Shown here in pieces: positions 11,931-31,824 of a stretch of DNA of 64,000 nucleotides. Position 1 is the first letter of the stretch. Every line of letters begins with the position of its first letter. The position numbers were made by a program, and so were the translations under genes. The notes under the pieces were generated by a model. The model was not told the DNA's origin. It worked only from the letters and a program-made list of their open reading frames with translations, and did not search any database. The DNA lies in the NCBI GenBank assembly GCA_049601915.1, contig JBMYRB010000001.1:330662-394661 (forward strand), in the 5' to 3' direction. Origin of the DNA: Alphaproteobacteria bacterium (lineage in GTDB: Bacteria > Pseudomonadota > Alphaproteobacteria > UBA6615).

Positions 11931-13244
11931 ATGGTCAACTCGGGCCTTCAATACACCCCAATCGAGCCACAGCGTTTCATGACCGATCAACCCGCCCCAA
12001 GGTCCTTCGCGGCGCTGCGCCACCCCGGCGCGCGGGCCTATCTGATCAGCACGGCGCTGGCGATGAACGCCGACGCGGTCGAGCATGTAATCAGCTACCT
12101 GATCATCTGGGAGAAATTCCAGTCGCCGACCCTGGGCGGCTTCGCGGTCGTCGCCCACTGGCTACCCTTCCTGTTTTTCTCGATCCATGCCGGGGCGCTC
12201 GCCGACCGGTTCGACCCGCGACGGGTGATCCAGGCGGCCATGCTCCTGTTCATGGCCGTCTCGGCGGCCTGGGGTCTGCTGTTCATGACCGACAGCCTCG
12301 AGATGTGGCACGCGGTTATCCTGCTGATCGTGCACGGGCTGGCGGGCGCGCTCTGGGCGCCGGCCTCCCAGCTCTTGATTCATGACATCGTCGGGCGCGA
12401 GCAGCTCCAGTCCGGCGTGCGCCTGCTGGCCACATCGCGTACCCTTGGTATCGTCCTCGGCCCCGCCGTCGGCGGCGGGCTGCTGCTCCTCGTCGGGCCG
12501 GTCTGGGGTATCTTCATCAACATCCTGATCTATGTGCCCCTGACCTGGTGGCTGATCGGGGCACCCTACGGGCCGGCGTTCCGCACGGGCGCGGAGGCCG
12601 CCGCGGCGACCGGCCGGCGTGCCATCAAGGGTTTCTCGGATATCGTTTCGACGATCCGCACGGTCTCGACCGACAGGGTGATCATGCCCATGACCATGGT
12701 GGTCGGCGTCGCCGCACTGATGGTCGGCAATGCCCATCACCCGCAAATGCCGGAGTTCGCGCTGGACCTGGGCAGCAGTGGCGACGGGTTCCTGTATTCC
12801 GCCCTACTGGCGGCGAACGCCGCCGGGGCGCTGGCCGCCGGGCTGATCCTCGAGACCCGCTCTCTGTTGCCCGCGCGGCGCAACACGGTGTTCATCCTGG
12901 TCATCCTCTGGTGCTTCGCCATGGGCGGCTTCGCCATCACATCCGACATCCGGGTGGCGATGGTGCTGCTGTTCGTCGCCGGCTTCCTCGATCTGTCCTA
13001 CAATTCCATGGCCCAGACCCTGGTCCAACTCCACGCCGCGCCCGAAATTCGCGGGCGGGTGGTGGGCCTCTATGTGATGGCGGCCTTCGGCCTGCGCGCC
13101 ATCTCCGGCGTCACGGTGGGCATGGCCGGCAGCCTGGTCGGCATCCACATGTCGCTTGCCATCAGCGCCGGCATCGTCTTCGTGGTGGTGATGGGCCTCG
13201 TCACACGCACCTATGTGACGGAGCCGCGTGGCAGCGCCACATGA
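11931..13244 (+). CDS. MFS transporter
   Basis: Twelve predicted TM segments. The gene is divergent from caiB. The start is uncertain: ATG 11931 or ATG 11979. Confidence 0.75.
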   Translation: MVNSGLQYTPIEPQRFMTDQPAPRSFAALRHPGARAYLISTALAMNADAVEHVISYLIIWEKFQSPTLGGFAVVAHWLPFLFFSIHAGALADRFDPRRVIQAAMLLFMAVSAAWGLLFMTDSLEMWHAVILLIVHGLAGALWAPASQLLIHDIVGREQLQSGVRLLATSRTLGIVLGPAVGGGLLLLVGPVWGIFINILIYVPLTWWLIGAPYGPAFRTGAEAAAATGRRAIKGFSDIVSTIRTVSTDRVIMPMTMVVGVAALMVGNAHHPQMPEFALDLGSSGDGFLYSALLAANAAGALAAGLILETRSLLPARRNTVFILVILWCFAMGGFAITSDIRVAMVLLFVAGFLDLSYNSMAQTLVQLHAAPEIRGRVVGLYVMAAFGLRAISGVTVGMAGSLVGIHMSLAISAGIVFVVVMGLVTRTYVTEPRGSAT

Positions 13245-14431
13245 CGACGGATAGCCCTCCCGCCCCGATCGCCCTGCTGGTCGCGCTGATGGTCGCCAGC
13301 CAGGTGGCCATCACGATCTTCCTGCCGTCGCTGCCGGCCATCGCGGAAGACCTCGAGACCAGCCAGGCGCTCGCACAGATGACCGTGTCGGTCTATCTCG
13401 GCGCCTTCGCGCTCGCCCAACTGGTGGTCGGCCCGCTGTCGGACGCGGTCGGGCGGCGCCGGCCGCTGATCACGGGCCTGGTCCTGTTTACCCTCGGCGG
13501 TCTTGCCTGTGCGCTGGCGCCGAACATCACCTTCCTGATCGCTGGCCGGGTGATCCAGGCCATCGGCGGCTGCACCTGCATCGTCATCTCCCGCGCCATC
13601 GTGCGCGACACCACCGACGGGCCCGCCGCCACACGGGCCATGGCCTATCTCGGCATGTCCCTCGCGGTCGCCCCCATGGTCGCGCCGCTGATCGGCGGGC
13701 AGCTCGAGGTACATTTCGGCTGGCAGTCGAACTTCCTGGCCACAGCACTGCTCGGGGCCGGCGCGCTCGTCGCAACGCTGATTACATTGCGCGAAACATT
13801 GCCGCCGGAGGCCCGCAAGTTCACCCGCGCCGGTGCTCTCGCGCGGACCTATCTGCGCCTGTCGCGCATGACCCGCTTCATGGGCTACAACCTGAGCACC
13901 GGCGCGATGGGCGCCACCTTCCAGGCCTTTATCGCCGGGACCCCCATCGCCTTCATCGTGGTCATGGGCGTCACCCCCGAGGCCTTCGGTTTCTTCATCC
14001 TGTCGACGCCGGCCGGCTACATCATCGGCAACTATATCGCCAGCCGGCTGGCGCAGCGGGTCTCGCGGGCCCGGATGATCTCGATCGGCGGCCTCCTGGC
14101 GATTGCCGGAACGGGCGCGACGGTGGTGCTGGCGCTCATGGGTCTCGACACGCCCTACACGCTGATCGTGCCGATGTTCATCTACTCCTGGGGCTCGGGC
14201 TTCCTGGTGCCCAATGGCCTGGCGGGCGCACTCACGGCGGTCGAGCCCGCGGCCGCCGGTTCCGCCGCAGCACTGGGCGGCTTCATCCAGATGAGCGCGG
14301 GTTTCCTGAGCACCCTGGCGGTAGCCAGCCTCGTCCAGACATCATTCCTGCAGCTCGGCCTGCTGATGCTCGGCTGCACGATCCTGTCCTGGCTTTTCTT
14401 TGTGGTGATGGTCCGGCGGGACGCCGCCTAA
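13241..14431 (+). CDS. Bcr/CflA family MFS drug-resistance transporter
   Basis: ATG at 13241 overlaps the upstream stop (ATGA). MTTDSPPAPIALLVALMVASQVAITIFLPSLPAIAEDL is typical of the Bcr/CflA N-terminus. The longer ORF from 12548 is a spurious extension. Confidence 0.8.
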   Translation: MTTDSPPAPIALLVALMVASQVAITIFLPSLPAIAEDLETSQALAQMTVSVYLGAFALAQLVVGPLSDAVGRRRPLITGLVLFTLGGLACALAPNITFLIAGRVIQAIGGCTCIVISRAIVRDTTDGPAATRAMAYLGMSLAVAPMVAPLIGGQLEVHFGWQSNFLATALLGAGALVATLITLRETLPPEARKFTRAGALARTYLRLSRMTRFMGYNLSTGAMGATFQAFIAGTPIAFIVVMGVTPEAFGFFILSTPAGYIIGNYIASRLAQRVSRARMISIGGLLAIAGTGATVVLALMGLDTPYTLIVPMFIYSWGSGFLVPNGLAGALTAVEPAAAGSAAALGGFIQMSAGFLSTLAVASLVQTSFLQLGLLMLGCTILSWLFFVVMVRRDAA

Positions 14432-14871
14432 CCCTCGCTGATGTCGTCGTCGGGAATCTCCGCGCCGACCGCAGCAAGCGCGGCCTTGGCCACCACGAGG
14501 TCCTCTTCGCCGGTGCCCGAGCCGCAGCCGATCCCGCCGACGCAGTAACCGTCGATGATGATCGGCACCCCACCTTTGAGCGGCAGCACCTTGCCTTGCG
14601 TCGAGACCGACAGGCCCATTCCGATATTGTAGTCGATGGCGTGGGTCGGCATCCGGTGGCTCGCCGCCGTCATCGCCTTGGCGCTGGCGGAGTCCTGCGC
14701 CAGCACCCGTGCACCGTCCATCAGCAGGTAGCCAACAATTCGCGCACCGTCATTGGCCACCGCGATACCCATGGGCACACCCATTTCATCCGCCTTTGCG
14801 ACAGCGGCATCAATAAGTGCACGGATGCCATCATGGGTAAGCTTGCGGGACGGGATCGTGTGGTCGGTCAT
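14428..14871 (-). CDS. GlcG/heme-binding (DUF336) family protein
   Basis: LTHDGIRALIDAAVAKADEMGVPMGIAVANDGARIVGYLLMDGA matches the GlcG family. Confidence 0.7.
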   Translation of the reverse strand: MTDHTIPSRKLTHDGIRALIDAAVAKADEMGVPMGIAVANDGARIVGYLLMDGARVLAQDSASAKAMTAASHRMPTHAIDYNIGMGLSVSTQGKVLPLKGGVPIIIDGYCVGGIGCGSGTGEEDLVVAKAALAAVGAEIPDDDISEG

Positions 14872-14963: not shown

Positions 14964-15587
14964 ATGTCCGATCCTGTCGTTTTAGAGGTCTTTGCCGACT
15001 ACGTTTGACCCTGGTGCTACCTCAGCACCGTGCGTGTTGAAAAACTCCGCCAAACCTACGACGTCGACATCCAGACCGTTCACTTCCCGCTACACCCCGA
15101 CACGCCGCTTGACGGCCAGTCGCTGGAACAACTCTTCGCCGGTCGCGATGTCGATCTCGATGCCATGTATGAGGGCATGAAGGCGCGGATGGACGAGGAA
15201 GGCCTGCCCTACGGCAAGCGCACCCACACCTACAACAGCCGGCTGGCCCAGGAACTCGGCAAGTGGTCCGACACCCAGCCGGGCGGCGATGCGATCCACA
15301 TGAAGCTCTACGAGGCCTATTTCGTCGACGCCAAGAATATCGGCTATGTCGACCTGCTGGTGGAGATCGCGGAGGGGGTCGGGCTCGATGGTGCGGCCGC
15401 GCGCGAGGTGCTGGAGAAACGCACCTTCGAGGCGGCCATCGACGCCGACTGGGAGAAATCCCGCCTGTATGGCGTCACCGGCGTGCCGACCTACGTGGCC
15501 GACGCCAAGGGCGTCGTCGGCGCCCAGCCCTATGAGGTGCTGGAGCAGCTGATGGACGCAGCGGGGGCGCAGAAGAAGGGCGGCTGA
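14964..15587 (+). CDS. DsbA/FrnE-like thioredoxin-fold oxidoreductase with an in-frame TGA at the first Cys of CPWC (candidate selenoprotein, or pseudogene)
   Basis: ATG at 14964 follows AAGGAAT. The reading frame MSDPVVLEVFADYV-TGA-PWCYLSTVRVEKLRQ... stays continuous through the TGA at 15006..15008. The rest of the protein is FrnE/DsbA-like. The stop-bounded ORF 15030..15587 would lack the active site. Confidence 0.5.
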
Positions 15588-15606
15588 GCCGCCCGGTTTC
15601 CGTTCC

Positions 15607-16260
15607 CTACTTAATGTCCTCGGGGAAGTCCGGCTGGGCCTGGGGACGGGCGTCGAAGAAGGCCGGGTTCTCCATGCAGGTCTTGAAGATACGCACGCAG
15701 TTCGGATAGTCGTCGAGCGGGATCTTGAACAGGGTCGCCGCGCCGACCTGGGGCACCAGGCACAGGTCGGCCAAGGTCACCTGGTCGCCTTCGCAATAGG
15801 TGCCCGACGTGCCGTCCTCGACCAGATGCTTCTCGATCGCGGCGAGGCCGAGCTTCGTCCAGTTGCCGATCCACGCGCCGAGTTCTTCCTCGCTATGGCC
15901 CCAATCCTGGGTGATGTATTTGCGGATCCGCGGCACCACCAGCGGGTGCATGTCCGCCACCAGGATCATGCAGAGCGACCGCACCCGCGCACGCGCCATG
16001 GCGTCGGTCGGCATCAGGGCCGGCTCGGGATAGGTCTCGTCGAGATATTCAAGGATCGCCATCGACTGGGTCAGCGTGTCCCCGTCATCGGTCACCAGCG
16101 CCGGGACCACGCCCTGGGGATTGATCTTGAGATATTCCGGGTCGAACTGCTCGCCCTTGATCAGGTCGGTCGAGACGACCTCGAAGGGCTGGCCCTTGAG
16201 GTTGAGCGCGATGCGGACGCGAAACGCGGCGAGCGAGCGCCAGTAGCCGAATAATTTCAT
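15607..16260 (-). CDS. maiA: Maleylacetoacetate isomerase / zeta-class glutathione S-transferase
   Basis: MKLFGYWRSLAAFRVRIALNLKG is typical of GSTZ/MaiA. Confidence 0.75.
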   Translation of the reverse strand: MKLFGYWRSLAAFRVRIALNLKGQPFEVVSTDLIKGEQFDPEYLKINPQGVVPALVTDDGDTLTQSMAILEYLDETYPEPALMPTDAMARARVRSLCMILVADMHPLVVPRIRKYITQDWGHSEEELGAWIGNWTKLGLAAIEKHLVEDGTSGTYCEGDQVTLADLCLVPQVGAATLFKIPLDDYPNCVRIFKTCMENPAFFDARPQAQPDFPEDIK

Positions 16261-16338: not shown

Positions 16339-18036
16339 TCAGGCCGTAACCGCAAGGCCACGCCGGTTTCGGAACAGCCAGGCCGGGGCCGCCGCCGCCA
16401 ACCCGAAGGCGATGAGCGGCAGGATCATCTGCAGCAGCGCGTAGGCGCCGATAGCGCGCCTGTCCGCGCCCGACGCCAGGGACACCGCCTCCGTGGTTAG
16501 CGTGTCGAGCCGACCGGCGCCGGCGAAGAGCGTCGGCAGGTACTGGCCCATGGACACGGTGAACCCGACGGCGGTCGCCACGAGAATGGGCCGCAGCAAC
16601 ATCGGCAGCTTGACCCGGCAGAACACGCGCAGCGGCGACGCGCCGAGACACAAGGCCGCCCGCGCATAGCGCACGTCCCAGGTCCGGTAGGGATCGGCGA
16701 GGGACAGAAAAACATACGGCAGGACGAACACCAGATGGGCCCAGGCGACCGCGATCCAGGCGCCGTCGAGATCACTCATCACCAGTAAGATCTGCGTGCC
16801 GAACAGAAACGCGATCTGGGGCACCAGCAATGGTACATACAGAAGCCATAGCGCCCGGTTCGTGGCCCGTTTGCCGAACCGTGCTTCATTCTCCAGACAA
16901 CCCACCGTTAGCACCAGTCCCACCAGCGCCGCGGCGATCCCGATGGTTGCGGTGTTCAAAGTCGCATTCGCCAACCGGTCGGCGTTGGCCGTCCAGGCAT
17001 TGAGGGAAAGCGTCGACGGCAGCGGGTCGGGGAACCGCCAGCGCCCGGCGATCGACCACAACGCCATGCTCGCCAGCCCGAGGAATGCGGCCATGAAACT
17101 CGCCGTCAGCGCCGTCGCCGCCGCGATACGCAGTGGGAAATCGCGACGTCCGCGGCTGCCGGCACGGATCCAGACGCGGCCGAGACAGGCCACAACGCGC
17201 TCGCCGAACCACCAGACAAGAATCGCCGCGACCACCAGGCCGAGCTGCACCAGCGCGCCGGCAGACGCCACGAAGCGCAAGGCCAGATCGGGATCGTTGA
17301 ACCAGCGCACCAGCTGCACGGCCAGCGGCGGCGGGGTCGAGGGGGCGAGCACCACCGAGACATCCACCACCGAGGAGGCAAACGCCAGGACGGCGAAGAC
17401 CGGCAGGCGAATTTGCCGGTAGACCAGCGGGAACACCGCCTTCAGCCAGGCCGCCGTGGTGCCGTATCCAAGGGTGCGCGCCATGGTGCGCACCCGTGCT
17501 GCATCCACTTGCCCGATTGCCGCCAGAGTCATCAGGAACAGGAACGGGATTTCCTTGACCACCAGCCCCGCGATCAGTGCCAGCCCGTCCGGGTCCTGCA
17601 CGATGATCAGGTCCGGCGGCCGGTCATAGCCGGTCAGCCAGGGCGAGGTCAGGCGGAAAATCCATCCCGACGGGGCCAGCAGGAAAGCGAGGCCGAATGC
17701 GACGGTCACATGGGGTACGGACAAGAGCGGCGAGAGCAGCTTCTGGACCCGCGCGAAGGAGCGGGTGCCGTGCCAGCCAGCGACGAACAGGATGACCACG
17801 GCAAACGATACGACCGTCACGGCCAGCCCGGTCACGAAGGACAACCGGATCGATTCCGCCACCCCGGGTGCGGCAAACAGGGCCCGCCACGGCTCCAGGC
17901 TGGACGTCGCGCGGCCCAGGGCCGGCAGATAACCGAAAGCGGGAAACAGCGTCCCGAGCAACCCGGCGACGACCGGCCCGAGCAGCAGCAGCAGGGTCAC
18001 CACGGGCACCCAGCGCAAGGGCGAGGACACCCCCAT
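16339..18036 (-). CDS. ABC transporter permease, fused two-domain type (ThiP/FbpB-like)
   Basis: About 565 aa with two BPD-transporter membrane domains. Start set at 18036 (GGGAAG RBS), 5 nt downstream of the SBP stop. Confidence 0.8.
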   Translation of the reverse strand: MGVSSPLRWVPVVTLLLLLGPVVAGLLGTLFPAFGYLPALGRATSSLEPWRALFAAPGVAESIRLSFVTGLAVTVVSFAVVILFVAGWHGTRSFARVQKLLSPLLSVPHVTVAFGLAFLLAPSGWIFRLTSPWLTGYDRPPDLIIVQDPDGLALIAGLVVKEIPFLFLMTLAAIGQVDAARVRTMARTLGYGTTAAWLKAVFPLVYRQIRLPVFAVLAFASSVVDVSVVLAPSTPPPLAVQLVRWFNDPDLALRFVASAGALVQLGLVVAAILVWWFGERVVACLGRVWIRAGSRGRRDFPLRIAAATALTASFMAAFLGLASMALWSIAGRWRFPDPLPSTLSLNAWTANADRLANATLNTATIGIAAALVGLVLTVGCLENEARFGKRATNRALWLLYVPLLVPQIAFLFGTQILLVMSDLDGAWIAVAWAHLVFVLPYVFLSLADPYRTWDVRYARAALCLGASPLRVFCRVKLPMLLRPILVATAVGFTVSMGQYLPTLFAGAGRLDTLTTEAVSLASGADRRAIGAYALLQMILPLIAFGLAAAAPAWLFRNRRGLAVTA

Positions 18037-18041
18037 CGCGG

Positions 18042-19244
18042 CTACTTCCCGCTGGCGTAGCGCTTCGCCCACTCGGCCTCGAGCGCGGCGACCCAGGACG
18101 GGTGCGGCTCCAGCTGGGTGATGCCGAGCTCGCCGGGCGACAGGGTCGCGACGCCGAGATCGAGGCTCTGGAACGCCGCCTTGGAGTCCTCCGGCAGCCG
18201 GTTCACATCGAGCACCGTGAAGCTGCCCCAGACTTCCGGGTTCTGTTTATGGGCCTGGGCTTCGGGCGACATCAGGAAGTTGGCCATTACCATCGCCCCT
18301 TCCCGGGCGTTGGCGTTGAAGGGAATGGCGACGAAATTGGTGTTGCCGATGGTCCCGTTGTTGAGCACGAAGGTGCGCACCGTGTCGGGCAGTTTGCCCT
18401 GGGCGATCAGGCCCGACGCCTCGGCCGGCTCGAATGACAGCGCGATCGAGATTTCGCCATCGTCGAGGAGGCGCATCAGGGCCGGGCCGTTCTGCGGGTA
18501 GACCTCGCCGCGCCGCCACATCAGCGGATGCAGCGCATCGAGATAGGCCCACAGCGGCGCCGTGTTCTCGGCAACGTCCGCAGCCGGCGCCTGGAGCGCA
18601 GACGGACTGACGACGAGCTCGATAAGCGCCTGCTTCAGGAAGGTGGTGCCGAGAAAGTTCGGCGGCTGGGGATAGGTGAAACGACCAGGGTTGTTTTTCG
18701 CCCATTCCAGCAGCCCCAGGATGGAGTCCGGCGGCGTTTCGACATGTGCAGTGTCATGCATGAACACGAACTGGGCCATGCCCCAGGGTGCCTCAAGATT
18801 GTCCACCGGCACCGTGAAGTCCACGGTCGTGGTCTTCTTGTTCACCGTGTCGACGAAGCGGTAATTCGGCGCACGTTCCGTCCACGGGCCGAACAGCAGA
18901 TCGTTCCGCTTCATCGCCGCAAAATTCTCGCCGTTGATCCAGATGAGATCGACCGAACCGCCGTCCAGTCGGCCCGCGGCCTTTTCCGCCACGACCCGGG
19001 CCACCGCTTCAGCCGTATCGGCTAGCTTCACATGCTGCACCGTCACGCCGCAGCGGGCCTGCACCTGGTCGCCCGCCCAGGCGATGTAGGCGTTGATGCG
19101 TTCATCACCGCCCCAGGCATTCCAGAAGACAAGCTGTCCGCGCGCCTTGTCGACCACCTCATCCCAGCTCTGGGCCAACGCCGGGCTTGTGGCGAACGGC
19201 GCAAGCGCCAGGAAACCGGCCAATGCCGCTGTCAGGATACGCAT
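18042..19244 (-). CDS. ABC transporter periplasmic substrate-binding protein (ThiB/FbpA-like class)
   Basis: ATG at 19244 follows AAAGAGGA. Signal peptide MRILTAALAGFLALAPFATSPALA. The mature protein starts QLVFWNAWGG. Confidence 0.8.
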   Translation of the reverse strand: MRILTAALAGFLALAPFATSPALAQSWDEVVDKARGQLVFWNAWGGDERINAYIAWAGDQVQARCGVTVQHVKLADTAEAVARVVAEKAAGRLDGGSVDLIWINGENFAAMKRNDLLFGPWTERAPNYRFVDTVNKKTTTVDFTVPVDNLEAPWGMAQFVFMHDTAHVETPPDSILGLLEWAKNNPGRFTYPQPPNFLGTTFLKQALIELVVSPSALQAPAADVAENTAPLWAYLDALHPLMWRRGEVYPQNGPALMRLLDDGEISIALSFEPAEASGLIAQGKLPDTVRTFVLNNGTIGNTNFVAIPFNANAREGAMVMANFLMSPEAQAHKQNPEVWGSFTVLDVNRLPEDSKAAFQSLDLGVATLSPGELGITQLEPHPSWVAALEAEWAKRYASGK

Positions 19245-19266
19245 CTGTGGTCCTCTTTCATGTTGG

Positions 19267-20331
19267 TTAGACCGCAACGGCGGCCGGTGTCGTTGGCGCC
19301 CAGTCGGCGCGAACACGCGTGATGGTGTCGGGATCGAGGTAATCGGCGACGCGGCCGGCCACATGGGCGACGAGCGCATCTTCGCTGAGTTCGGCCGACC
19401 AGTTCTCGGTGGACTTATTTTCTTTCGGTTCGCTCGCCGCGGTCTCGCCTGACTCGACCCGCCATTTGGCACACCAGGTCACGGACCAGAGCCACATCAT
19501 CCGGCGCAACGGCAGCAGCCAGGGCGCGGTCGCCGCCGCGAGATCACCGGGCACCGCATCGAGCCACGCCTGATGAAATGCGCTCACCTGGCCGCGATCC
19601 AGCACGGCGTGGCTGTCCACATCCCAAGTGGTCGAGGTGTAGAGGGTGGCGTGCGCCAGATCGAAGGCCGCCGCGCCATAGCGCGCCTTCTCCAGATCGA
19701 CTAGGACCGCGCGGCCATCAGACGTCATCAGGTAGTTACCCGGATGGGCGTCGAACGCGATGAGTGTCCGGGGCGGGCGGGCATCCCGCGCCAGGGTCGC
19801 GCCAGCCGCCTGCAGTTCCTCGCGAATCTGGGCTTCGGCATCCGGGTGCAAATCCGCCGCCGCGACATAGGCCGCCTGGGTCATGATCTCCATGAACGTA
19901 TCGGCCATCGGATCGACCGGGTCCTTCAGGGGCGCGCGTTCGTTGGCATCCGGCAACGGCAGCGCATGGATCGCGGCCAGGCATGCCGCCATCGCCGCCA
20001 AATCATTCGGCAACGACAATGCCCGGCCGTCGATCAGGTCGACGATCAGCGCGCCCATGGGAAACTGGTCATCCGGCGTCAGTTTTTCACGCAGGTTCGG
20101 CACATGCCCGCTGGCCGACGCACGTGCGAAACAGGCGGCCTGATAGTCGAGATTCTCCGCCGCCGCGAGGCCGAGCTGGCTCTGCTTGGGCACCCGCGCG
20201 AGTGTACCCGTGTCGCCGATCCGGACATGGTCATGGGCGAGGCCCGTATCCGGCAATGGGTGCAAATCCGTGACCGGCACGCCGAGGCGCGCAGCCAGCG
20301 CCGCGCACACGACTTCTATGCGGCTGCTCAT
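19267..20331 (-). CDS. Phosphotransferase (APH/choline-kinase-like) family kinase
   Basis: ATG at 20331 overlaps the radical-SAM stop (ATGA). Catalytic-loop-like LIAFDAHPGNYL and Mg-binding LVDLEKARYG are present. Confidence 0.75.
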   Translation of the reverse strand: MSSRIEVVCAALAARLGVPVTDLHPLPDTGLAHDHVRIGDTGTLARVPKQSQLGLAAAENLDYQAACFARASASGHVPNLREKLTPDDQFPMGALIVDLIDGRALSLPNDLAAMAACLAAIHALPLPDANERAPLKDPVDPMADTFMEIMTQAAYVAAADLHPDAEAQIREELQAAGATLARDARPPRTLIAFDAHPGNYLMTSDGRAVLVDLEKARYGAAAFDLAHATLYTSTTWDVDSHAVLDRGQVSAFHQAWLDAVPGDLAAATAPWLLPLRRMMWLWSVTWCAKWRVESGETAASEPKENKSTENWSAELSEDALVAHVAGRVADYLDPDTITRVRADWAPTTPAAVAV

Positions 20332-21368
20332 GCGGCCGTCCGCCGGCTCAGGCGCGCCTGGCGCAGCCCCTCGATGAGCGGGCCCAGCACCTGCTCGTGG
20401 AACCGGTCGCAGCCGATACAAAGATTGCGGTAGGTCTCGCCCGAAGGCGTCCTGGTTTCGCTGTTCTGCCGGAACGTATCTTCGTCCCAGCCAAAGGCCA
20501 GGCCCATGCGTTCGGGCGCGCCGTCGTTCAGCGCCTCGAACGCCGGATGGCCGACGAGGCTGTCCAGAATCTCCGTGAGCGGCTCCTCGGTCAGGTTGCC
20601 GAGCGGCGCCTTGGTCTTGAGGCAGCAGGGATAGACGTTGCCGTTGGGCTCGATCGAGACCTCGGAGCCGAGCTTTACGTGGTTCATGAAATTGAGCCCG
20701 CCCGACCAGCGGTTGCAGAAATTATCGTCGAGGGTGGCGCCGGAAAGCTCATTGTCCCAGGCCCGCCCGCGCGGCCAGATCGGCCCGATCCACTCTTCCG
20801 GGTTCGCCCCCATGAAGGAATAGACCGGCGGCTCGGTGCCCCGCCCGTCGGTGCCGTCATGGCGCCGACCCGTCGGTAACAAGCCTGCCGCCTCAACCAG
20901 GCCCGTCAGATGTTCCATCAGGGGCACGCGCTTGTCGCCTTCATGGCCGACGTGGAAGTCGTCCATGCCCGTGATCGAGAGTTGCCACATGCCGTGGGCC
21001 AGCAGCTCGTCGAGAATTTCCGCGGTCACCAGGTCGCCCGTCGTCTGCACCACCACCCGCACCCCGCCCGCGTCGGCGTATTTGTCACGCAGCATGTCCA
21101 TCACCGGATAGAGCACCGGCTCGCGAATCTCGTCGAGCAGCACCTCGCCCCCCGACAGGATGACACGCCCGGGCTTCTCGGGGCCGCCGTCGCTCTCGCG
21201 ATAGGTCATGCGATCGGGCAGATTGGCCACGATCCGCGCATGATTCTCTACCGCCTCATTAACCACGGCGTCGCGTTCGTCGCGCACATAGGGGCGAAAG
21301 CGCGTGTCGTAGCAATGCGCACAGCGCCGGTGACAGAGCCACGAGATGACGTAGTAGATCGATTCCAT
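20328..21368 (-). CDS. Radical SAM / Cys-rich domain protein (TIGR04167-like, ArsS-type)
   Basis: CxxxCxxC motif (CHRRCAHCY) near the N-terminus. C-terminal Cys-rich segment reads VYPCCLKT...NLCIGCDRFH. It lies adjacent to the DUF2064 and GT2 genes. Confidence 0.75.
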   Translation of the reverse strand: MESIYYVISWLCHRRCAHCYDTRFRPYVRDERDAVVNEAVENHARIVANLPDRMTYRESDGGPEKPGRVILSGGEVLLDEIREPVLYPVMDMLRDKYADAGGVRVVVQTTGDLVTAEILDELLAHGMWQLSITGMDDFHVGHEGDKRVPLMEHLTGLVEAAGLLPTGRRHDGTDGRGTEPPVYSFMGANPEEWIGPIWPRGRAWDNELSGATLDDNFCNRWSGGLNFMNHVKLGSEVSIEPNGNVYPCCLKTKAPLGNLTEEPLTEILDSLVGHPAFEALNDGAPERMGLAFGWDEDTFRQNSETRTPSGETYRNLCIGCDRFHEQVLGPLIEGLRQARLSRRTAA

Positions 21369-21450
21369 GCTTTCCCCGCTGGGACCGCGATTGTAGCGGT
21401 CACCATGTCATACGGAACAGTCCGGAAGTCACGTCACGGTTTGTTGACAA

Positions 21451-22062
21451 CTATTCCCGGCGGCGGCGCTGGCGCCACGCGGTCCAGGCCGCACCATCGT
21501 CCACATCATCGAGTTCGTCCAGCGTCGCCACACGGGCGTTTCCCGGCAGACCAGCCAGGGTATCGGCCAGGGCATATTCGGTGCTCCAGCGGACGTCACG
21601 AAACAATCCACGGGGTAAGGTCGGGCGGCGGCGCGCACCGACGAGCCAGTACCCGCCGTCGGCTGCCGGGCCGAACACATAATCACGGGCGCCCAGCGCA
21701 GCAAAACCATCTGCGATATGGCCACGGGTGACATCGGGGATATCCGTTCCGACGACGATCACCGGGCCCGGCGGAAGAGTTCTCATCGGCCGGGCCATGC
21801 GCACCCCCAGATCACCCTTTCCTTGCGGGATCAACCTCACGCCGGGCACAGCCGGCCACAGACCGGTGCGTGCCGCATCCACATCCGGCGTCACGGCCAG
21901 CCAGGTTTGCCAGCGGGGATCCGTGCCCAGCCGCCGTGTCAAATCGTGCAGGGTCTGGCGATAGAAGCCGAGCGCCGGGCCATCACCGATGTCCGCCGCG
22001 AGCCGCCGTTTGACTGCGCCACGCCGGGGCGCCCGGGCGAAAATGACAAGATGGGGCCTCAT
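21451..22062 (-). CDS. DUF2064 (TIGR04282-like) nucleotidyltransferase-fold protein
   Basis: The hallmark N-terminus VIFARAPRRGAVKRRLA matches the DUF2064 pattern FxKxPxxGxVKTRL. Confidence 0.75.
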   Translation of the reverse strand: MRPHLVIFARAPRRGAVKRRLAADIGDGPALGFYRQTLHDLTRRLGTDPRWQTWLAVTPDVDAARTGLWPAVPGVRLIPQGKGDLGVRMARPMRTLPPGPVIVVGTDIPDVTRGHIADGFAALGARDYVFGPAADGGYWLVGARRRPTLPRGLFRDVRWSTEYALADTLAGLPGNARVATLDELDDVDDGAAWTAWRQRRRRE

Positions 22063-22745
22063 CGATAAATCCGGTCAATCATCCGGGCCGGCATGCCCAT
22101 GAGATACAGGAACAGGCAGAACAGATTTCGCATCGGGCGCCGCCAGTAGCCGCCCTCGCGGTAGCGTTTGGCGGAGGTCAACGCCGCCGTTTCCAGGCTC
22201 ATCAGACGGCTGCGACCCATCCGCCGGGCGAGATAAACATCCTCCATCAAGGGTTGATCCGGATATCCGCCGAACGCCGTGTAGAGATCACGCGGGATCG
22301 CCAGGCCCTGATCGCCATACGGCAGGCCCAGCACCCGGCAGCGCCATGCCGCCATACGCTCAATCCGTCGCGCACCGGGCGTGTCATCGTCGAGCTGGAA
22401 ACGAAAATAGGCGGCGCGGTGGCGCTCGTTGATCATAAACGCCGCCAGTTCGACCGCCCAGCCCGCCTGTAAAACCGTGTCGGCATGCAGGAACAACAGC
22501 CAGTCGCCACGCACTTCCGCGGCCCCGGCCGCAAGCTGGGTGCCGCGGCCCCTCGGTGCCTCGATCACCCGCGCACCTTGAGATTCAGCGACCGCGACGG
22601 TGTTGTCGCCGGAGCCACCATCGACGACGAGGATATCGAGATCGAAGATCGCCCGCGCATGCTCGAGCGCCCCCAGCGCGCGCGCGAGGCTGGCCCCCGC
22701 GTTCAAAGCGGGGATGACGACACCGAGGCTCGTGTTAACCGACAC
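22059..22745 (-). CDS. Family 2 glycosyltransferase (TIGR04283-like)
   Basis: GT2 core: LGVVIPALNAG...LDILVVDGGSGDNT...GDWLLFLHADT. Start tentatively the GTG at 22745. The ATG at 22817 would overlap the upstream MFS gene by about 80 nt. Confidence 0.7.
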   Translation of the reverse strand: MSVNTSLGVVIPALNAGASLARALGALEHARAIFDLDILVVDGGSGDNTVAVAESQGARVIEAPRGRGTQLAAGAAEVRGDWLLFLHADTVLQAGWAVELAAFMINERHRAAYFRFQLDDDTPGARRIERMAAWRCRVLGLPYGDQGLAIPRDLYTAFGGYPDQPLMEDVYLARRMGRSRLMSLETAALTSAKRYREGGYWRRPMRNLFCLFLYLMGMPARMIDRIYR

Positions 22746-23901
22746 GGGCTTCTCGCCACTGCAGACCACGCAACGCCCCCAGCGCGACAATCGCCAGCGC
22801 CATCGTGACGCCTCCATAAAACATGGCCGACGCCGGGTCACCGGTCCGGTCGACGATCCAGCCCGCCAGTGCCGGACCGACGAACAGGCCGGCATGGTTC
22901 CAGGTGTGATAGAGGCCCGTGCCCGTGTTGCGATGTTCCGCCCGCACCGTCTCGACCGTCAGCGCCATCACGTTGCCGGTCGGGATGCCGATGAAAATCG
23001 CGGCCAGTATGAACAGCGCCAGCGGTGCATCGACCAGGGGTATGAGGCCGACCATCAGCGCCCCGAGCGCGAAGCAGCTCACCATGACCAAATTTGGCCG
23101 GGCCAGCTTCTCGGACATCCAGCCCCCCAGCGGAATTGCAAACATGTAGACGAAGGTGGCGTTGGCGAGCAGAAGACCTGCGGCGGCAACATCCATGCCG
23201 CGCAACACCAGCATGGCGGGCCCGAAGGACAGCACCATCAGATAACCGGCGTTGTAGAGCACCCAGATGATCCCCGCGAGAGAGACCTTGGTGGCCTCGG
23301 CCCGGGTGATTGCCAGGCGCTGTACCGGCCGCGCAGGACCACGCCCCGCCGGCCGATAAAGAATGGCGACCAGCAGCATGCCAACGAAGGAGCCGATCCC
23401 CGCCGTCAGGAACACCGCCTGCCAGCCCCAGGCTTCCGCCATGGCACCCTGGGTATAGAGGCCGATGGCGATACCGACCGGCCAGCTGTTCATCAGGACA
23501 GCCATGGCAGTGACGACCTCCCGGCCCTCGAACAGGTCGCCGACAATCTTCACCATCACGACCGTGATCACCACGCCGCCCGTCCCCGCAACGACCCGGC
23601 CCACGCCAATCAGCGCAAAATCATCGGCGAGCCACATAATGAAACCGCCGGCCGCCATCATCGCCAGGCCGAACAGGCACATGCGGCGCTCGCCGAAGCG
23701 CTGGGCGAGGAATCCCGACGGCAGGGCCGTCAGCACCCCAAGCAGGCTGAATAGGCCGATCAGGGTGCCGACCTCGGTAAAGTCGATCCCCAGATCTTCG
23801 ACCAGCAGCGGCGAGACCGACGCAACGGACTGGAAATGATAGCCGAGTGCGGAACGCGCCAGGAAAAGCGCCCCGAGCACCATCCACCGGTTGGCGGTCA
23901 T
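22735..23901 (-). CDS. MFS transporter
   Basis: Twelve TM segments. It is the first gene of the minus-strand operon. Confidence 0.8.
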   Translation of the reverse strand: MTANRWMVLGALFLARSALGYHFQSVASVSPLLVEDLGIDFTEVGTLIGLFSLLGVLTALPSGFLAQRFGERRMCLFGLAMMAAGGFIMWLADDFALIGVGRVVAGTGGVVITVVMVKIVGDLFEGREVVTAMAVLMNSWPVGIAIGLYTQGAMAEAWGWQAVFLTAGIGSFVGMLLVAILYRPAGRGPARPVQRLAITRAEATKVSLAGIIWVLYNAGYLMVLSFGPAMLVLRGMDVAAAGLLLANATFVYMFAIPLGGWMSEKLARPNLVMVSCFALGALMVGLIPLVDAPLALFILAAIFIGIPTGNVMALTVETVRAEHRNTGTGLYHTWNHAGLFVGPALAGWIVDRTGDPASAMFYGGVTMALAIVALGALRGLQWREARVG

Positions 23902-24061: not shown

Positions 24062-24079
24062 AATTTCGATCGTTAGGTG

Positions 24080-25450
24080 TCATTCAGCCGCCGCCTTCAT
24101 CACGCCGGCGGCATCGAGGATGCGGCGGCCGGAGTCGGCGAGCTTGCCCAGGGTCTCGCGGAGCGCCGCCTCGGGATAGACCAGCTTGCCGTCGCGCTTC
24201 TTCACCTTGCCGTTGACGAAGACCGTGTCCACATTGTGCGGTGTGGCCATGAAGACCAGCGTCTGAATGGGGTCATGCACCGGGCAGGTGTTGAGATCGT
24301 CGCCGCGGGTGAGGATCATGTCGGCCTTCTTGCCCGGCGTCAGGGAGCCGATCCTGTCGTCCATGCCCAGCGCGCGGGCATTCCCGATCGTGGCCCATTC
24401 CAGCGCCACGCGGGTTTTCAAATGTTCGGGCATGGTCTTGGTCGGGCGCGGACGCGCATCTGTGTACATCCCGCGCTCCAGCTGCAGGGAGAAACGCACG
24501 ACGGAGAACATGTCGCCGGAAATGTTCGATTCGAGATCGACGCCAAAGGACGGCGTCCCGCCTGCCGCCAATACCCGCCCGGTGGCCGGGTTGCCGTGGC
24601 CGAAGTTGCACTCGCATTCGGGCGCCACGGTGATCGAGCCGCCCCGGTCAACGATCAGCTGGATTTCCTCGTCGGAGAAATTATTGGCGTGGACGAAATC
24701 CGCATCGGGGCCGAGCAGGCCGAGTTCGTCCAGCCGGTGGATCGGCTTGTCGGCAAACAGGGGAATGCCCTGGGCGCCGGTGTGGTTGGACCAGCGCAGG
24801 CCCATATCCCTGGCCAGCCGCACGTCATGCTCGATGCAGTCCCAGACCGAGAAGCCCACGCCCTGGATGCACATGGCCATGGTGATCAGCGCATCGTCGG
24901 ACGCGAGTCGCCCCTTGCGCAGGCGCTCAACGCGCTCACGCGAATGGGGCCGCTCGTTGAACGGCGCCTCACCGGGCTTGGGGTCCGTCTTGGTCTGGCC
25001 GTGGCCGTAAATCGCGCGGATACCGGCTTCTTCCAGGCTGTCGATCGCCGCGTCCGTGTGGTCTGTCGTGGCGTTGCAATGGTGCCAGTCGAACAGCGTG
25101 GTCGTGCCGCAATTGAGCTGGTTCAGCGCGCCGCAGAGGTTGGCGAGGCGGATGTCGTCGGGAGTGAAATGGGGCACCGCCGTCGCATGCATCAGCTGGG
25201 AGTATTCGAACATCGTCCAGTCGGCGACCACGCCGCGCACGCCGGTCTGCCAAGTGTGTTCGTGCATGTTGATCATGCCCGGGCTGACGATCATGTTCAA
25301 CGCGTCGATCACCTGCGCATCGCCACCGTCGATGTTGCGGCCGACCTCGACGATCCGGTCGTCCTCAATCAGCACGTCGCCGCCGCGAATGTCGCCGATC
25401 GCATCGTCCATGGACACGACCCAGCCGCCCTTGATCAATGTGCGCGCCAT
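24080..25450 (-). CDS. Amidohydrolase, ATZ/TRZ/MtaD-like deaminase family
   Basis: ATG at 25450 follows GGGGAGAG. MARTLIKGGWVVSMDD...IVSPGMINMHEHTW carries the metal-binding HxH of the cytosine/adenosine-deaminase-like amidohydrolases. Confidence 0.8.
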   Translation of the reverse strand: MARTLIKGGWVVSMDDAIGDIRGGDVLIEDDRIVEVGRNIDGGDAQVIDALNMIVSPGMINMHEHTWQTGVRGVVADWTMFEYSQLMHATAVPHFTPDDIRLANLCGALNQLNCGTTTLFDWHHCNATTDHTDAAIDSLEEAGIRAIYGHGQTKTDPKPGEAPFNERPHSRERVERLRKGRLASDDALITMAMCIQGVGFSVWDCIEHDVRLARDMGLRWSNHTGAQGIPLFADKPIHRLDELGLLGPDADFVHANNFSDEEIQLIVDRGGSITVAPECECNFGHGNPATGRVLAAGGTPSFGVDLESNISGDMFSVVRFSLQLERGMYTDARPRPTKTMPEHLKTRVALEWATIGNARALGMDDRIGSLTPGKKADMILTRGDDLNTCPVHDPIQTLVFMATPHNVDTVFVNGKVKKRDGKLVYPEAALRETLGKLADSGRRILDAAGVMKAAAE

Positions 25451-25582
25451 GATTATCTCTCCCCGGAGACGGATGTTCTTGATTACACGGAGACTAGCGC
25501 GCCCGTGCCGCCCAAGGAAACGCCTCGAATGAGGTTCGCGTTCACAATGCGCCGTACGTCGGGTCAAGAAACGGGCTTACCG

Positions 25583-25972
25583 TTACTCCGTCTTCCAGCC
25601 GCCCTCGTTGATGTCGAAGATCACCCCGTCCGGGTCCCGGTACTTGATCTCGTAGAACGCGCCCGCGTCCTTCGCCTCGCCCATCAGCCAATTGCCGCCG
25701 GCCGCCTCGATCTCGCCCTGGGTGGCTTCCACGTCATCGACGATGAAGCCGATATGATGCACGCCGAACTTGTCCGGATCGCCGCCCGCGGCCTCCTCGG
25801 TCTTGTAGCGCAGCAGCGCCAGATTGACCGTTCCATCGGTGAGATACACCGCCGTCGCACCCGGATGGTCGTTCTCACCGACCCTGGTCATGCCCAGCGC
25901 CTTCTCATAGAACGCCGCGGCCTTCTGCGGGTCGGGCACGGACAGGGCGAAATGGCGGAGTTTGGCGGTCAT
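25583..25972 (-). CDS. VOC (glyoxalase/bleomycin-resistance) family protein
   Basis: LRHFALSVPDPQKAAAFYEKALGM. Confidence 0.75.
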   Translation of the reverse strand: MTAKLRHFALSVPDPQKAAAFYEKALGMTRVGENDHPGATAVYLTDGTVNLALLRYKTEEAAGGDPDKFGVHHIGFIVDDVEATQGEIEAAGGNWLMGEAKDAGAFYEIKYRDPDGVIFDINEGGWKTE

Positions 25973-25992
25973 TGAAAAATCCTTTTCCCCAC

Positions 25993-31748: not shown

Positions 31749-31824
<76 letters not shown>

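Follow-up and report, generated by a model that had tools for sequence, protein, structure and literature searches.

A radical SAM enzyme (rSAM) and a binding-protein-dependent ABC importer of the YnjB/YnjC(/YnjD) type appear, from sequence and gene neighbourhood, to form a conserved unit, and it is this unit, rather than an association of the rSAM with a GT2 glycosyltransferase and a DUF2064 protein, that seems to underlie a seven-gene operon at positions 16339-23901 of the window, the 64-kb stretch of alphaproteobacterial DNA analysed here. The genes that complete the operon, for the kinase, for GT2 and DUF2064 and for the MFS transporter, are lineage-specific additions, and the rSAM itself represents a new, unnamed family of the Twitch/SPASM type. 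The reading that we favour, to which we give slightly less than an even chance, is a pathway of import, radical modification, phosphorylation, nucleotidyl activation and transfer built around the YnjB/YnjC(/YnjD) and rSAM module.

Organization of the locus

The seven open reading frames are tightly packed on the minus strand and encode an MFS transporter, GT2, DUF2064, the rSAM, an APH kinase, a substrate-binding protein (SBP) and a fused permease. A sequence-only reading of this DNA had proposed a seven-gene minus-strand operon, and open reading frames, junctions and an independent gene call all agree with it: on an identical 6.9-kb public contig, the six genes from GT2 to the permease were recovered identically, with products of 236 aa (GT2), 203 aa (DUF2064), 346 aa (rSAM), 354 aa (APH), 400 aa (SBP) and 565 aa (permease). 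The spacing of -4 to +82 nt given there holds for the ATGA overlaps of GT2 with DUF2064 (22059-22062, read from the sequence) and of the rSAM with the kinase (20328-20331, where the kinase ATG overlaps the rSAM stop codon), as well as for the 82-nt gap from DUF2064 to the rSAM, but not for the overlap of GT2 with the MFS stop (22735-22737), which spans 35 nt from a GTG start at 22769 or 11 nt from one at 22745, and not 4 nt. The kinase and SBP genes lie 22 nt apart, and the SBP and permease genes 5 nt. The gap between the GT pair and the rSAM is one that we count against the favoured pathway.

Terminator-like sites in the region are no more numerous than expected from shuffled sequence, and those within the array fall in coding sequence; since genes overlap and none of these internal sites is convincing as a terminator, the evidence favours co-transcription. 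A 7-bp all-GC hairpin (15578-15594, no strand assigned) lies between convergent genes for a glutathione S-transferase (GST; 15607-16260, minus strand, co-directional with the operon) and a DsbA-like protein, and is likely a bidirectional terminator at the end of the transcription unit. Because this hairpin sits 3' of the GST gene, the unit may comprise at least eight genes, GST included.

A radical SAM family distinct from ArsS

What kind of enzyme anchors the module? The rSAM (20328-21368, minus strand) carries the cysteine motifs C12-x3-C16-x2-C19, YPCC (248-249) and LCIGC (317-320), and its family is sharply delimited and highly conserved, with eight invariant cysteines and long motifs of its own (WIGxLWPRGRAW and GMDDFHVG). 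In fold the rSAM comes closest to EpeE, BtrN and anSME, and it has no significant sequence similarity to solved structures. In profile searches it rose above the cut-off only for the generic SPASM domain of Pfam and fell short of the threshold in all specific NCBIfam models. Literature searches returned no description of the rSAM family, of YnjBCD or of DUF2064, nor of the architecture as a whole, in line with the earlier view that this is not a characterized system.

The motifs that the sequence-only reading quoted for the rSAM, DUF2064 and GT2 are all present. Its assignment of the three proteins to TIGR04167, TIGR04282 and TIGR04283 stands for GT2 (205.9 bits against a cut-off of 182) and, marginally, for DUF2064 (136.7 against 134), but the rSAM gave no match to TIGR04167, the ArsS model, even at E<=10; one third of the family assignment, which that reading had let stand or fall with these profiles, is thus refuted. 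Genuine ArsS, run as a control, scored 436 bits against TIGR04167, so the model was present in the library. On the missing profile match, and on a BLASTP E value of 1.1 against genuine ArsS, we rejected the identification of the rSAM as ArsS, and with it that of the locus as the ArsS arsenosugar trio, the rSAM being from an unrelated family.

Other top matches of the rSAM include ChlB, SkfB, CteB and anSME, and one source labels a homologue 'sulfatase maturation enzyme AslB', as would suit an enzyme whose target is a peptide (RiPP) or a protein, with the SBP itself as one possibility, and not a small molecule. We consider such a maturase highly improbable: no small open reading frame upstream of the rSAM is conserved beyond close relatives, and the gap from rSAM to SBP is about 100 nt; the transporter, which depends on an SBP, imports rather than exports; the locus has no gene for a protease or a RiPP recognition element; and the sole cysteine of the mature SBP from the window is not conserved across the family.

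The YnjB/YnjC importer

The SBP (18042-19244, minus strand) is a periplasmic protein of the YnjB family with a Sec signal peptide ending ALA-QS; it scores 534.9 bits against NF008633 (cut-off 203) and is 45% identical to E. coli YnjB over its full length (E 3e-105). Its AF2 model resembles FbpA/FutA, PhnS and PotD, binding proteins for Fe3+, phosphonate and polyamines, with binders of Fe3+, phosphonate, polyamine and metal-citrate matching about equally (TM 0.55-0.61). The permease (16339-18036, minus strand) is a fused double ABC permease of the YnjC family, with about 12-14 hydrophobic segments, PF00528 in its C-terminal half and 31% identity to E. coli YnjC across residues 3-561 (E 2.5e-45). 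Because of this homology and the signal peptide, YnjB/YnjC is predicted to be an importer.

Gene-neighbourhood comparison found both the kinase and the ABC genes beside the rSAM in other genomes, as the earlier reading had anticipated. Where genome loci offer enough flanking sequence, a YnjB-type SBP follows the rSAM in 62 of 74, a YnjC-type permease is present in 49 of 62, and an ABC ATPase follows in at least 28 of 59. Such rSAM-transporter loci occur in Alpha-, Beta- and Gammaproteobacteria (including SAR86 and Pseudohongiella), Verrucomicrobiota, Acidobacteriota and one Bacteroidota MAG. A distant Bacteroidota branch of the rSAM (31% identical) retains all eight cysteines, and in five of five contexts it belongs to an operon of fixed order: DUF2064, a TonB receptor, a YnjB-like SBP (33% identical), two permeases, an ATPase and the rSAM. 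Nineteen of 53 fully flanked loci consist of the rSAM and YnjBCD alone, so that activation and transfer steps would either not be universal or be encoded elsewhere in those genomes. The rSAM stands without an adjacent YnjB in 11 of the 53, and in 15 of 80 genome loci overall (Parvibaculaceae, Nisaea, Kordiimonas). An ABC ATPase adjoining the module is absent from the window and its 14 closest relatives, and the 64-kb window holds no cognate ABC ATPase. The loci reduced to rSAM and YnjBCD, those without an adjacent YnjB and the missing neighbouring ATPase all weigh against the favoured pathway, as do the near-equal matches of the SBP model.

Accessory genes

Profile searches upheld the earlier assignments of the APH kinase, SBP, fused permease and MFS transporter. 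The kinase (19267-20331, minus strand) is an APH-fold small-molecule kinase (PF01636, 52.6 bits) with only weak NCBIfam matches, such as homoserine kinase II (25.5 against a cut-off of 255.9), and this lack of a specific family also speaks against the favoured pathway. It accompanies the rSAM in 13 of 53 fully flanked genome loci. In 23 of 81 loci its gene separates those of the rSAM and the SBP; among these are four distant loci (L038, L040, L064 and L071) that have the kinase and lack the GT pair.

GT2 (22059-22769, minus strand, for the 236-aa form) is a small, soluble GT-A glycosyltransferase with the motifs VIPALNAG, VVDGGSGDNT and LFLHADT; it scores 63.7 bits against PF00535, is 55% identical to the copy in Bosea, and weakly matches two enzymes that act as glycosyltransferases on small molecules, glucosyl-3-phosphoglycerate synthase and MftF. 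DUF2064 (21451-22062, minus strand), marked by VIFARAPRRGAVKRRL, has a CofC/MobA-like nucleotide-diphospho-sugar-transferase fold and is a putative nucleotidyltransferase: it scores 105.9 bits against PF09837 and matches PDB 3cgx, a 'putative nucleotide-diphospho-sugar transferase' (E 3e-12), and its Bosea orthologue weakly matches F420 CofC.

The pair accompanies the rSAM in 15 of 53 fully flanked genome loci, with GT2 alone in one more. Its position varies: in the window lineage and in Hyphomicrobiales the pair stands upstream of the rSAM, Bosea and Beijerinckiaceae have it inserted between ynjB and ynjC, and in Rhizobiales GAS113 it is found 1.4 kb upstream. Might the amidohydrolase and MFS genes, the GT2-DUF2064 pair and the rSAM-APH-YnjBC genes then be separate units that share only a strand? 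The pair is missing from most rSAM loci and occurs elsewhere without this rSAM family, the 82-nt gap separates DUF2064 from the rSAM, and synteny of the MFS, amidohydrolase and GST genes is confined to close relatives. Yet in two phyla and at least four different gene orders DUF2064, with or without GT2, is found next to the rSAM/YnjB module, as in the ynjB/ynjC insertion and at the head of the Bacteroidota operon, and with the gene overlaps and no convincing internal terminator as well, we regard chance juxtaposition as improbable.

The MFS transporter (22735-23901, minus strand; 388 aa; PF07690 MFS_1, 190.6 bits; about 11 hydrophobic segments) is encoded first of the seven genes; of 81 loci, 11 have it upstream of GT2, and all of these are from close relatives of the window. 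The GST, of the maleylacetoacetate-isomerase type (TIGR01262, 241.2 bits, cut-off 171), is encoded 78 nt beyond the permease gene, in the slot that other genomes give to ynjD (the ATPase), and is kept there in 14 close relatives; it is probably co-transcribed with the operon, and its membership of the pathway is doubtful. It shows no similarity to the GST near Thiodictyon ArsS. An amidohydrolase of the nucleobase/nucleoside-deaminase group (24080-25567, minus strand) is encoded 178 nt upstream of the MFS gene and co-directional with it (PF01979, 96 bits; NF006056, 522.7 bits; 156 bits, below cut-off, against a 5'-deoxyadenosine deaminase model). Its cluster (c26) occurs at 10 loci, with synteny only in close relatives, and its place in the operon is uncertain.

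A possible uptake and modification pathway

In the pathway that we favour, the importer and its dedicated Twitch/SPASM-type rSAM would form a base module conserved across phyla, to which the marine alphaproteobacterial lineage of the window may have added the APH-fold kinase, the TIGR04282 (DUF2064) and TIGR04283 (GT2) pair and the MFS transporter. A small compound, polar or charged, would be bound in the periplasm by YnjB and passed by YnjC into the cell, where the rSAM, with a single auxiliary cluster beside its SAM cluster, may carry out a radical step on it, most likely an oxidation or rearrangement through hydrogen abstraction, by fold analogy with BtrN, SpeY, DesII and anSME. The kinase could then phosphorylate a hydroxyl group, DUF2064, given its CofC/MobA-like fold, could convert the phosphate ester to a nucleotide-activated form, and GT2 could pass the activated group on to an acceptor, either a small molecule or a lipid, a role for which the CDP-alcohol phosphatidyltransferase YnjF is a candidate in Bosea and E. 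coli. We would guess that the MFS transporter carries the product or a co-substrate. By analogy, the logic would be that of kinase, nucleotidyltransferase and transferase coupled to uptake and a radical step.

An arsenosugar-like pathway with a non-orthologous rSAM would assign the same proteins differently: the 5'-deoxyadenosyl group of SAM would be transferred to a heteroatom nucleophile taken up by the importer, for instance a methylated arsenical, adenine removed, C1 of the resulting 5-substituted ribose phosphorylated by an APH kinase resembling 5-methylthioribose kinase, and the sugar converted by DUF2064 to an NDP-sugar from which GT2 makes a riboside. MtnK has the APH fold, but the kinase in the window has no MtnK match in NCBIfam. 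The TIGR04282/TIGR04283 pair occurs with genuine ArsS in Thiodictyon; it is annotated beside S-methyl-5'-thioadenosine phosphorylase (MTAP) on a Burkholderia thailandensis plasmid, and GT2 and MTAP homologues occur together on a Cupriavidus plasmid, which points to 5'-substituted 5'-deoxyadenosine chemistry. The pair in the window is about equally near to the ArsS-linked copies (35-36%; GT2, 35%) and the MTAP-linked ones (34-37%; GT2, 37%), and the amidohydrolase encoded upstream is a member of the 5'-deoxyadenosine/MTA deaminase group. ArsS itself is an rSAM that transfers an adenosyl group (Cheng et al. 2021, as cited in PMC12159101), but the rSAM in the window has no sequence similarity to it, and most rSAM loci have no GT pair. 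Neither ars genes nor a methyltransferase motif turned up in the 64-kb window, where a crude regular expression for methyltransferase motif I gave nothing in any frame, consistent with the earlier statement that no arsM-like gene is present, or in six annotated contexts. We consider this pathway unlikely.

Comparison with known systems

The ArsS neighbourhood of Thiodictyon syntrophicum plasmid pTs417 has the order GT2, sterol desaturase, ArsS, TIGR04282. The window resembles it in the two proteins that pass the family models and in the adjoining rSAM gene, but neither arsM nor any further ars gene lies close by; the constant partner of its rSAM family, an ABC importer, is missing from the ArsS cluster.

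The SBP and permease instead recall the orphan cluster of E. coli K-12, in which ydjX-ydjY-ydjZ-ynjA-ynjB-ynjC-ynjD-ynjE, with two DedA proteins, run on one strand and ynjF is convergent. That cluster has no rSAM, GT2, DUF2064 or APH kinase, and carries instead the 4Fe-4S ferredoxin-type YdjY, the AhpD-like YnjA and the sulfurtransferase YnjE, whereas the window lacks ynjD, ynjF and DedA genes. Bosea links the two: a single run encodes a DedA-FAD fusion with a YdjZ-like DedA domain, an orthologue of E. coli YnjF (50.5% identical), the rSAM, YnjB (42%), GT2, DUF2064, YnjC and YnjD (50%), and the position of GT2/DUF2064 between ynjB and ynjC, beside the YnjF orthologue, ties the system to the ydjXYZ-ynjABCDEF cluster. 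A variant of the favoured pathway would be salvage of membrane-lipid head groups, with YnjBCD importing an amino-alcohol or polyol precursor, YnjF, or here the kinase, DUF2064 and GT2, attaching it to lipid, a DedA-family protein flipping the product and the rSAM tailoring the head group. Phosphatidylcholine synthase (Pcs) likewise uses imported choline and CDP-diacylglycerol as substrates, and in Pontibacter an APH/EcKL kinase and an inositol-monophosphatase-family gene adjoin DUF2064 on its upstream side. A preprint (10.1101/2023.01.04.522824) and other titles implicate DedA proteins in the transport of lipids and of undecaprenyl phosphate. We hold this variant to be quite unlikely, since YnjF and DedA genes accompany only 2 of 80 rSAM genome loci, both in Bosea, with neither in the window, and GT2 is predicted to be soluble.

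Among radical SAM enzymes, the rSAM differs from the BtrN/SpeY dehydrogenases and from the SPASM/Twitch class (anSME, EpeE, DesII, BlsE) in an extra invariant cysteine, C249, and in its long family-specific motifs. Salvage pathways that join a kinase, a nucleotidyltransferase and a transferase include LicA/LicC/LicD phosphocholine decoration, the Kennedy pathway and AmgK/MurU; the operon matches their outline, with an APH-fold kinase, a GT-A-like candidate nucleotidyltransferase, a transferase and an importer, although no protein of the window scores against those families and a radical SAM step is added. Importer-linked rSAM systems for salvage or catabolism are known as well: the C-P lyase PhnJ with PhnCDE, ChuW with a heme importer, and queuine lyase with an ECF transporter. 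Although its rSAM family, transporter family and presumably substrate are different, the window is like these systems in encoding its rSAM within an uptake operon, to which the Bacteroidota operon adds a TonB-dependent receptor.

A seven-gene array on an ordinary chromosome

The seven co-directional minus-strand genes that the sequence-only reading had drawn together as an operon (16339-23901) are borne out by the ORF listing, in the order MFS transporter (PF07690), GT2, DUF2064, radical SAM enzyme (rSAM), APH kinase, YnjB-type substrate-binding protein (SBP) and fused YnjC-type permease, and family membership is established for six of the seven proteins. A public 6.9-kb contig of identical sequence carries the same gene calls (GT2 236, DUF2064 203, rSAM 346, APH 354, SBP 400 and permease 565 aa). 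Both ATGA overlaps that had been described are present, GT2/DUF2064 at 22059-22062 and rSAM/APH at 20328-20331, and the gaps are 82 nt between DUF2064 and rSAM, 22 nt between APH and SBP and 5 nt between SBP and permease. The GT2/MFS junction required correction: GT2 starts at GTG 22769 or GTG 22745, overlapping the MFS stop by 35 or 11 nt. A terminator search within the array found nothing convincing, and a strong hairpin lies at 15578-15594, beyond the next co-directional gene, a maiA-type GST (15607-16260).

Further co-directional genes stand upstream, namely an amidohydrolase (24080-25567, minus strand), a glyoxalase and a cupin. The amidohydrolase belongs to the 8-oxoguanine / 5'-deoxyadenosine / MTA deaminase group (NF006056, 523 bits) and its synteny is restricted to close relatives; judging by its family, it could be relevant to recycling SAM by-products. 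A plus-strand ORF at 24077-25975 (632 aa) was considered as a divergent gene and rejected as the antisense shadow of this amidohydrolase. Long antisense or extended shadow ORFs that are not genes, such as the N-terminal part of 12548-14431 (+), are numerous because of the 64% GC content. The window is ordinary chromosome, in which N-terminal sequence and position point to lptB, rpoN, hpf, ptsN, rpsA, trpBA, accD, folC and addAB; a tRNA gene at 31752-31824 (-) is its sole Rfam gathering-level match. The host is an uncultured marine alphaproteobacterium, and the closest loci come from Alphaproteobacteria and Rhodospirillaceae MAGs, with 88-96% identity in the rSAM.

A compact radical SAM family outside ArsS

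The protein encoded at 20328..21368 (-) is a member of the radical SAM superfamily: it shows the CxxxCxxC cluster motif together with the fold typical of rSAM enzymes, a partial TIM barrel. The sequence-only reading had taken it for the ArsS member of an arsenosugar-type trio completed by DUF2064 and GT2, an assignment that the profiles refute: TIGR04167 (cut-off 300 bits) gives no match even at E<=10, in a search where 17 other rSAM models match weakly. As a positive control, the PGAP-annotated ArsS from a Thiodictyon syntrophicum plasmid, where it sits in a cluster of GT2, sterol desaturase, ArsS and TIGR04282, scores 436 bits against the same 300-bit cut-off, and BLASTP between this ArsS and the window rSAM yields E=1.1 with a longest match of 12 residues. 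Because the profile and BLASTP tests fail while the control passes, the supposed trio is a pair plus an unrelated rSAM; the arsenosugar gene neighbourhood is not present here, since the rSAM beside the pair is not ArsS. We are much more confident of this point than of the pathway as a whole that we propose below.

What family, then, does the enzyme belong to? It scores below the cut-off of every specific NCBIfam model; the one model that it passes is the generic Pfam SPASM domain (PF13186, 33.0 bits, above cut-off), and a sequence search of the PDB detected no solved structure for it. More than 1,800 homologues were found among 8,000 candidates scored, and the source records give them no name beyond 'radical SAM/SPASM domain protein'. 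Conservation within the family is unusually high: members from Alpha-, Beta- and Gammaproteobacteria and Verrucomicrobiota share 57-63% identity, and the overall figure across phyla is about 57-60%. The family also has a sharp boundary: of 1.84 billion cluster representatives searched by profile, just 432 fall at E<=1e-3, and many of these are below full length. Eight cysteines are invariant, the SAM-cluster triad C12/C16/C19 together with C218, C248, C249, C317 and C320, and all eight are kept even in a Bacteroidota branch at just 31% identity. By their number, the five C-terminal cysteines would suffice for one auxiliary cluster of the Twitch-like kind and would be too few for the full seven-Cys SPASM motif. 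Their spacing, C...G-x4-C...C-x2-C, matches the one in BtrN, which has a single auxiliary cluster.

That the enzyme is a peptide or protein maturase is very improbable: no conserved precursor peptide gene was found in the 700 nt upstream of the rSAM gene, where any conservation of small ORFs is confined to close relatives.

Conserved linkage to a YnjB/YnjC importer

We fetched 80 genome loci around rSAM homologues, located the window proteins in them with tblastn and clustered all ORFs; loci with too short a flank were left out of the linkage counts. The rSAM is followed by a YnjB-type SBP in 62 of 74 loci, by a YnjC-type permease in 49 of 62 and by an ABC ATPase in at least 28 of 59; the median gap between rSAM and SBP is about 100 nt. 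Among 53 fully flanked loci the most frequent architecture is rSAM-SBP-permease-ATPase only, as in SAR86 (19/53), followed by the window's own architecture and by loci with no YnjB adjoining the rSAM (11/53 each). The others carry rSAM-SBP-permease only (4/53), the GT pair, that is GT2 and DUF2064, without the kinase (4/53), the kinase without the GT pair (2/53), GT2 without DUF2064 (1/53), or SBP and ATPase with the permease match absent (1/53). The association of kinase and ABC genes with the rSAM, which the sequence-only reading had pointed out in this single context, is thus found in other genomes as well, the linkage being conserved for YnjB/YnjC and recurrent for APH, as it is for DUF2064 and GT2.

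In Parvibaculaceae and relatives (loci L055, L065, L066, L067 and L073), an rSAM without YnjB beside it is preceded by a gene for a TauD/TfdA-family dioxygenase, and the flanks were read by eye as RND/MMPL-type transporters and a LolA-like protein. One locus titled 'MAG: Klebsiella pneumoniae' (59% GC) matches a lake gammaproteobacterial MAG in gene order and ORF clusters, and its taxonomic label looks wrong or its bin contaminated.

A tblastn search of plasmids brought up a distant rSAM in Chondrinema litorale, which belongs to a Bacteroidota operon of DUF2064, TonB-dependent receptor, YnjB-like SBP, two permeases, ATPase and rSAM. This operon is fixed in all five contexts, from Chondrinema litorale, Pontibacter, Flavobacteriales, Lewinellaceae and Cytophagales (L087, L091, L092, L093 and L094/L095), and in Pontibacter an APH/EcKL kinase gene and an inositol-monophosphatase-family gene stand just upstream. 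We take the rSAM, the importer and DUF2064 to work together chiefly because they recur side by side in several gene orders and in two phyla, and we regard it as improbable that the neighbouring modules are unrelated to each other. We place much more confidence in the rSAM and the importer being a single module than in the full pathway.

Transporter and kinase

The SBP is a YnjB by profile (NF008633 / COG4134, 534.9 bits, cut-off 203) and by its 45% identity to E. coli YnjB over 377 aa (E 3e-105), and its N-terminus, MRILTAALAGFLALAPFATSPALA-QS, reads as a Sec signal. The permease is of the fused YnjC type, with 31% identity to E. coli YnjC over residues 3-561, PF00528 on its C-terminal half and about 12-14 hydrophobic segments. 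A YnjD-like ATPase gene is absent at the locus and across the 64 kb, leaving YnjBCD incomplete in the window. The GST gene at 15607-16260 stands where other genomes have ynjD, in the window and its 14 nearest relatives. The sole ABC ATPase match within the window, at 2300-3085, is 34% identical to the YnjD type; we rejected it as the missing YnjD, as it reads as lptB from its place beside rpoN, hpf and ptsN. The GST was likewise rejected as a feature common to the ArsS cluster, the window protein being maiA-type and unrelated to the Thiodictyon GST. In one sub-lineage (L013-L018), a gene for a TauE/SafE-family (TSUP) membrane protein (PF01925, 90 bits) lies between ynjB and ynjC.

An AF2 model of the SBP (pLDDT 81) resembles in Foldseek FbpA/FutA (Fe3+), PhnS (2-aminoethylphosphonate), PotD/PotF (polyamines) and MctA (metal-citrate), all at TM 0.55-0.61, values that do not discriminate between ligand classes. 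Sequence searches of the PDB gave no meaningful match for either the SBP or the kinase. A riboswitch search at Rfam gathering level, covering the whole window and seven diverse loci, returned only tRNAs, and therefore no regulatory clue to the ligand. JGI and KEGG label the SBP 'putative thiamine transport system', by annotation only. The kinase passes PF01636 alone (52.6 bits), which places it in the APH superfamily and nothing narrower; the best specific NCBIfam model is that of homoserine kinase II, thrB_alt, at 25.5 against a cut-off of 255.9, with no MtnK, ThiK or LicA at E<=10.

The DUF2064 and GT2 pair

Both glycosyltransferase-pair assignments of the sequence-only reading hold, DUF2064 by a marginal pass of TIGR04282 (136.7 bits, cut-off 134) with PF09837 at 105.9 bits, and GT2 by a full-length match to TIGR04283 (205.9 bits, cut-off 182). 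The position of the pair varies: in the window lineage it precedes the rSAM, as it does in Hyphomicrobiales at about 35% identity; in Rhizobiales GAS113 it lies 1.4 kb upstream; and in Bosea and Beijerinckiaceae it has been inserted between the ynjB and ynjC genes.

The pair also occurs without an rSAM. On a B. thailandensis plasmid (locus L085, 5946-12316) an annotated TIGR04283/TIGR04282 pair adjoins S-methyl-5'-thioadenosine phosphorylase, near a DedA (TVP38)-FAD oxidoreductase fusion of the same type as in Bosea. Genes for DoxX, a DNA-binding-domain protein, DUF692 and DUF2282 lie beside the DedA-FAD gene (12318-14582), and the opposite flank of the GT pair carries a sigma/anti-sigma pair; the arrangement resembles bufferin-type clusters for copper-binding peptides. 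In Cupriavidus, tblastn places homologues of GT2, the phosphorylase and the DedA-FAD fusion together on an unannotated plasmid (locus L089, 3657-8094), and 49 of 55 plasmid records matching GT2 are from Burkholderia.

Could the window still encode an arsenosugar-like pathway, in which a non-orthologous rSAM transfers the adenosyl group? The pair's other partners, ArsS and MTA phosphorylase, and the deaminase group of the upstream amidohydrolase would fit such a pathway. However, the rSAM has no similarity to ArsS or MqnE, and the GT pair is absent from most rSAM loci. No ars genes were found either: methyltransferase motif I does not occur across the 64-kb window, in agreement with the earlier remark that it holds no arsM-like gene, and the neighbours scanned between 7.3 and 30.7 kb of window contain no ars-like Pfam match. 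We therefore consider an arsenosugar-like pathway unlikely.

A link to the orphan E. coli ydj-ynj cluster

In Bosea (locus L082, 2344-11158) a single run of genes encodes a DedA-FAD fusion, YnjF, rSAM, YnjB, GT2, DUF2064, YnjC and YnjD. Its YnjF, a CDP-alcohol phosphatidyltransferase, and its YnjD are orthologues at 50.5% and 50% identity, and a YdjZ-like DedA domain is fused to the FAD oxidoreductase. E. coli K-12 (locus L096, 1834000-1846000) has ydjX-ydjY-ydjZ-ynjA-ynjB-ynjC-ynjD-ynjE with ynjF convergent, and four gene families are common to the Bosea cluster and this ydjXYZ-ynjABCDEF cluster. The searchable literature describes no function for the E. coli cluster: YnjBCD is termed 'uncharacterized' (PMC9207381), and we found no functional study in the literature on YnjBCD, DUF2064, the TIGR numbers, arsenosugar genes or ynjF/ydjXYZ. 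The presence of YnjF and DedA raises the alternative that the module serves lipid head-group salvage, which we think has a small chance of being right.

A proposed uptake-coupled pathway

What might such a module do? It is real and widespread, and we infer its function from its parts. YnjBC would import a small polar or charged compound, on which the putative Twitch-type rSAM would carry out a radical step, most likely an oxidation or rearrangement initiated by H-abstraction. The APH kinase would then phosphorylate a hydroxyl; DUF2064, whose fold resembles 3cgx and CofC, would activate the phosphate ester with a nucleotide; and GT2, a small GT-A enzyme with GpgS and MftF as weak relatives that glycosylate small molecules, would transfer the activated group. 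Taken as a whole, we give this import, radical, activation and transfer scheme a little under an even chance.

More broadly, it is possible, though we would sooner doubt than assert it, that the rSAM and YnjBCD with recurrent DUF2064 and GT2 constitute a previously unrecognised uptake-coupled pathway, in which a scarce compound, once taken up, would undergo radical remodelling and nucleotide activation and end up in a lipid or glycoconjugate. The pathway would be common to marine Alphaproteobacteria, SAR86 and Pseudohongiella, soil Bosea and Burkholderiales, Verrucomicrobiota and Bacteroidota; in Bacteroidota it would be fed by a TonB-dependent receptor. If so, the orphan E. coli ydj-ynj cluster would gain a function, and TIGR04282 and TIGR04283 would prove too narrowly named as 'arsenosugar biosynthesis' families. 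These names already set an annotation trap, as pipelines would call two genes of the window 'arsenosugar biosynthesis' though it has no ArsS or arsenic gene. The module is present in abundant marine groups, and its substrate may therefore be an ecologically relevant dissolved compound.

The analysis defines a compact rSAM family and offers a first way into YnjBCD from the genomic side, tying this E. coli ABC transporter, long an orphan, to YnjF, DedA, DUF2064 and a radical enzyme. Cultured carriers, among them Bosea vaviloviae, Lutibaculum baratangense, Limobrevibacterium gyesilva, Oceaniglobus roseus, Pontibacter sp. G13 and Chondrinema litorale, allow direct tests.

Comparison with known systems

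The closest named system is the ArsS/TIGR04282/TIGR04283 neighbourhood, from which the window differs in a defining member, the rSAM. Among homologous gene sets the orphan ynj cluster of E. coli comes closest, and in enzymology the Twitch rSAM dehydrogenases do. Pathways that couple an rSAM enzyme to an importer are known already, exemplified by C-P lyase, ChuW and queuine lyase; set beside these, the window module would be a variant built around an unnamed rSAM family.
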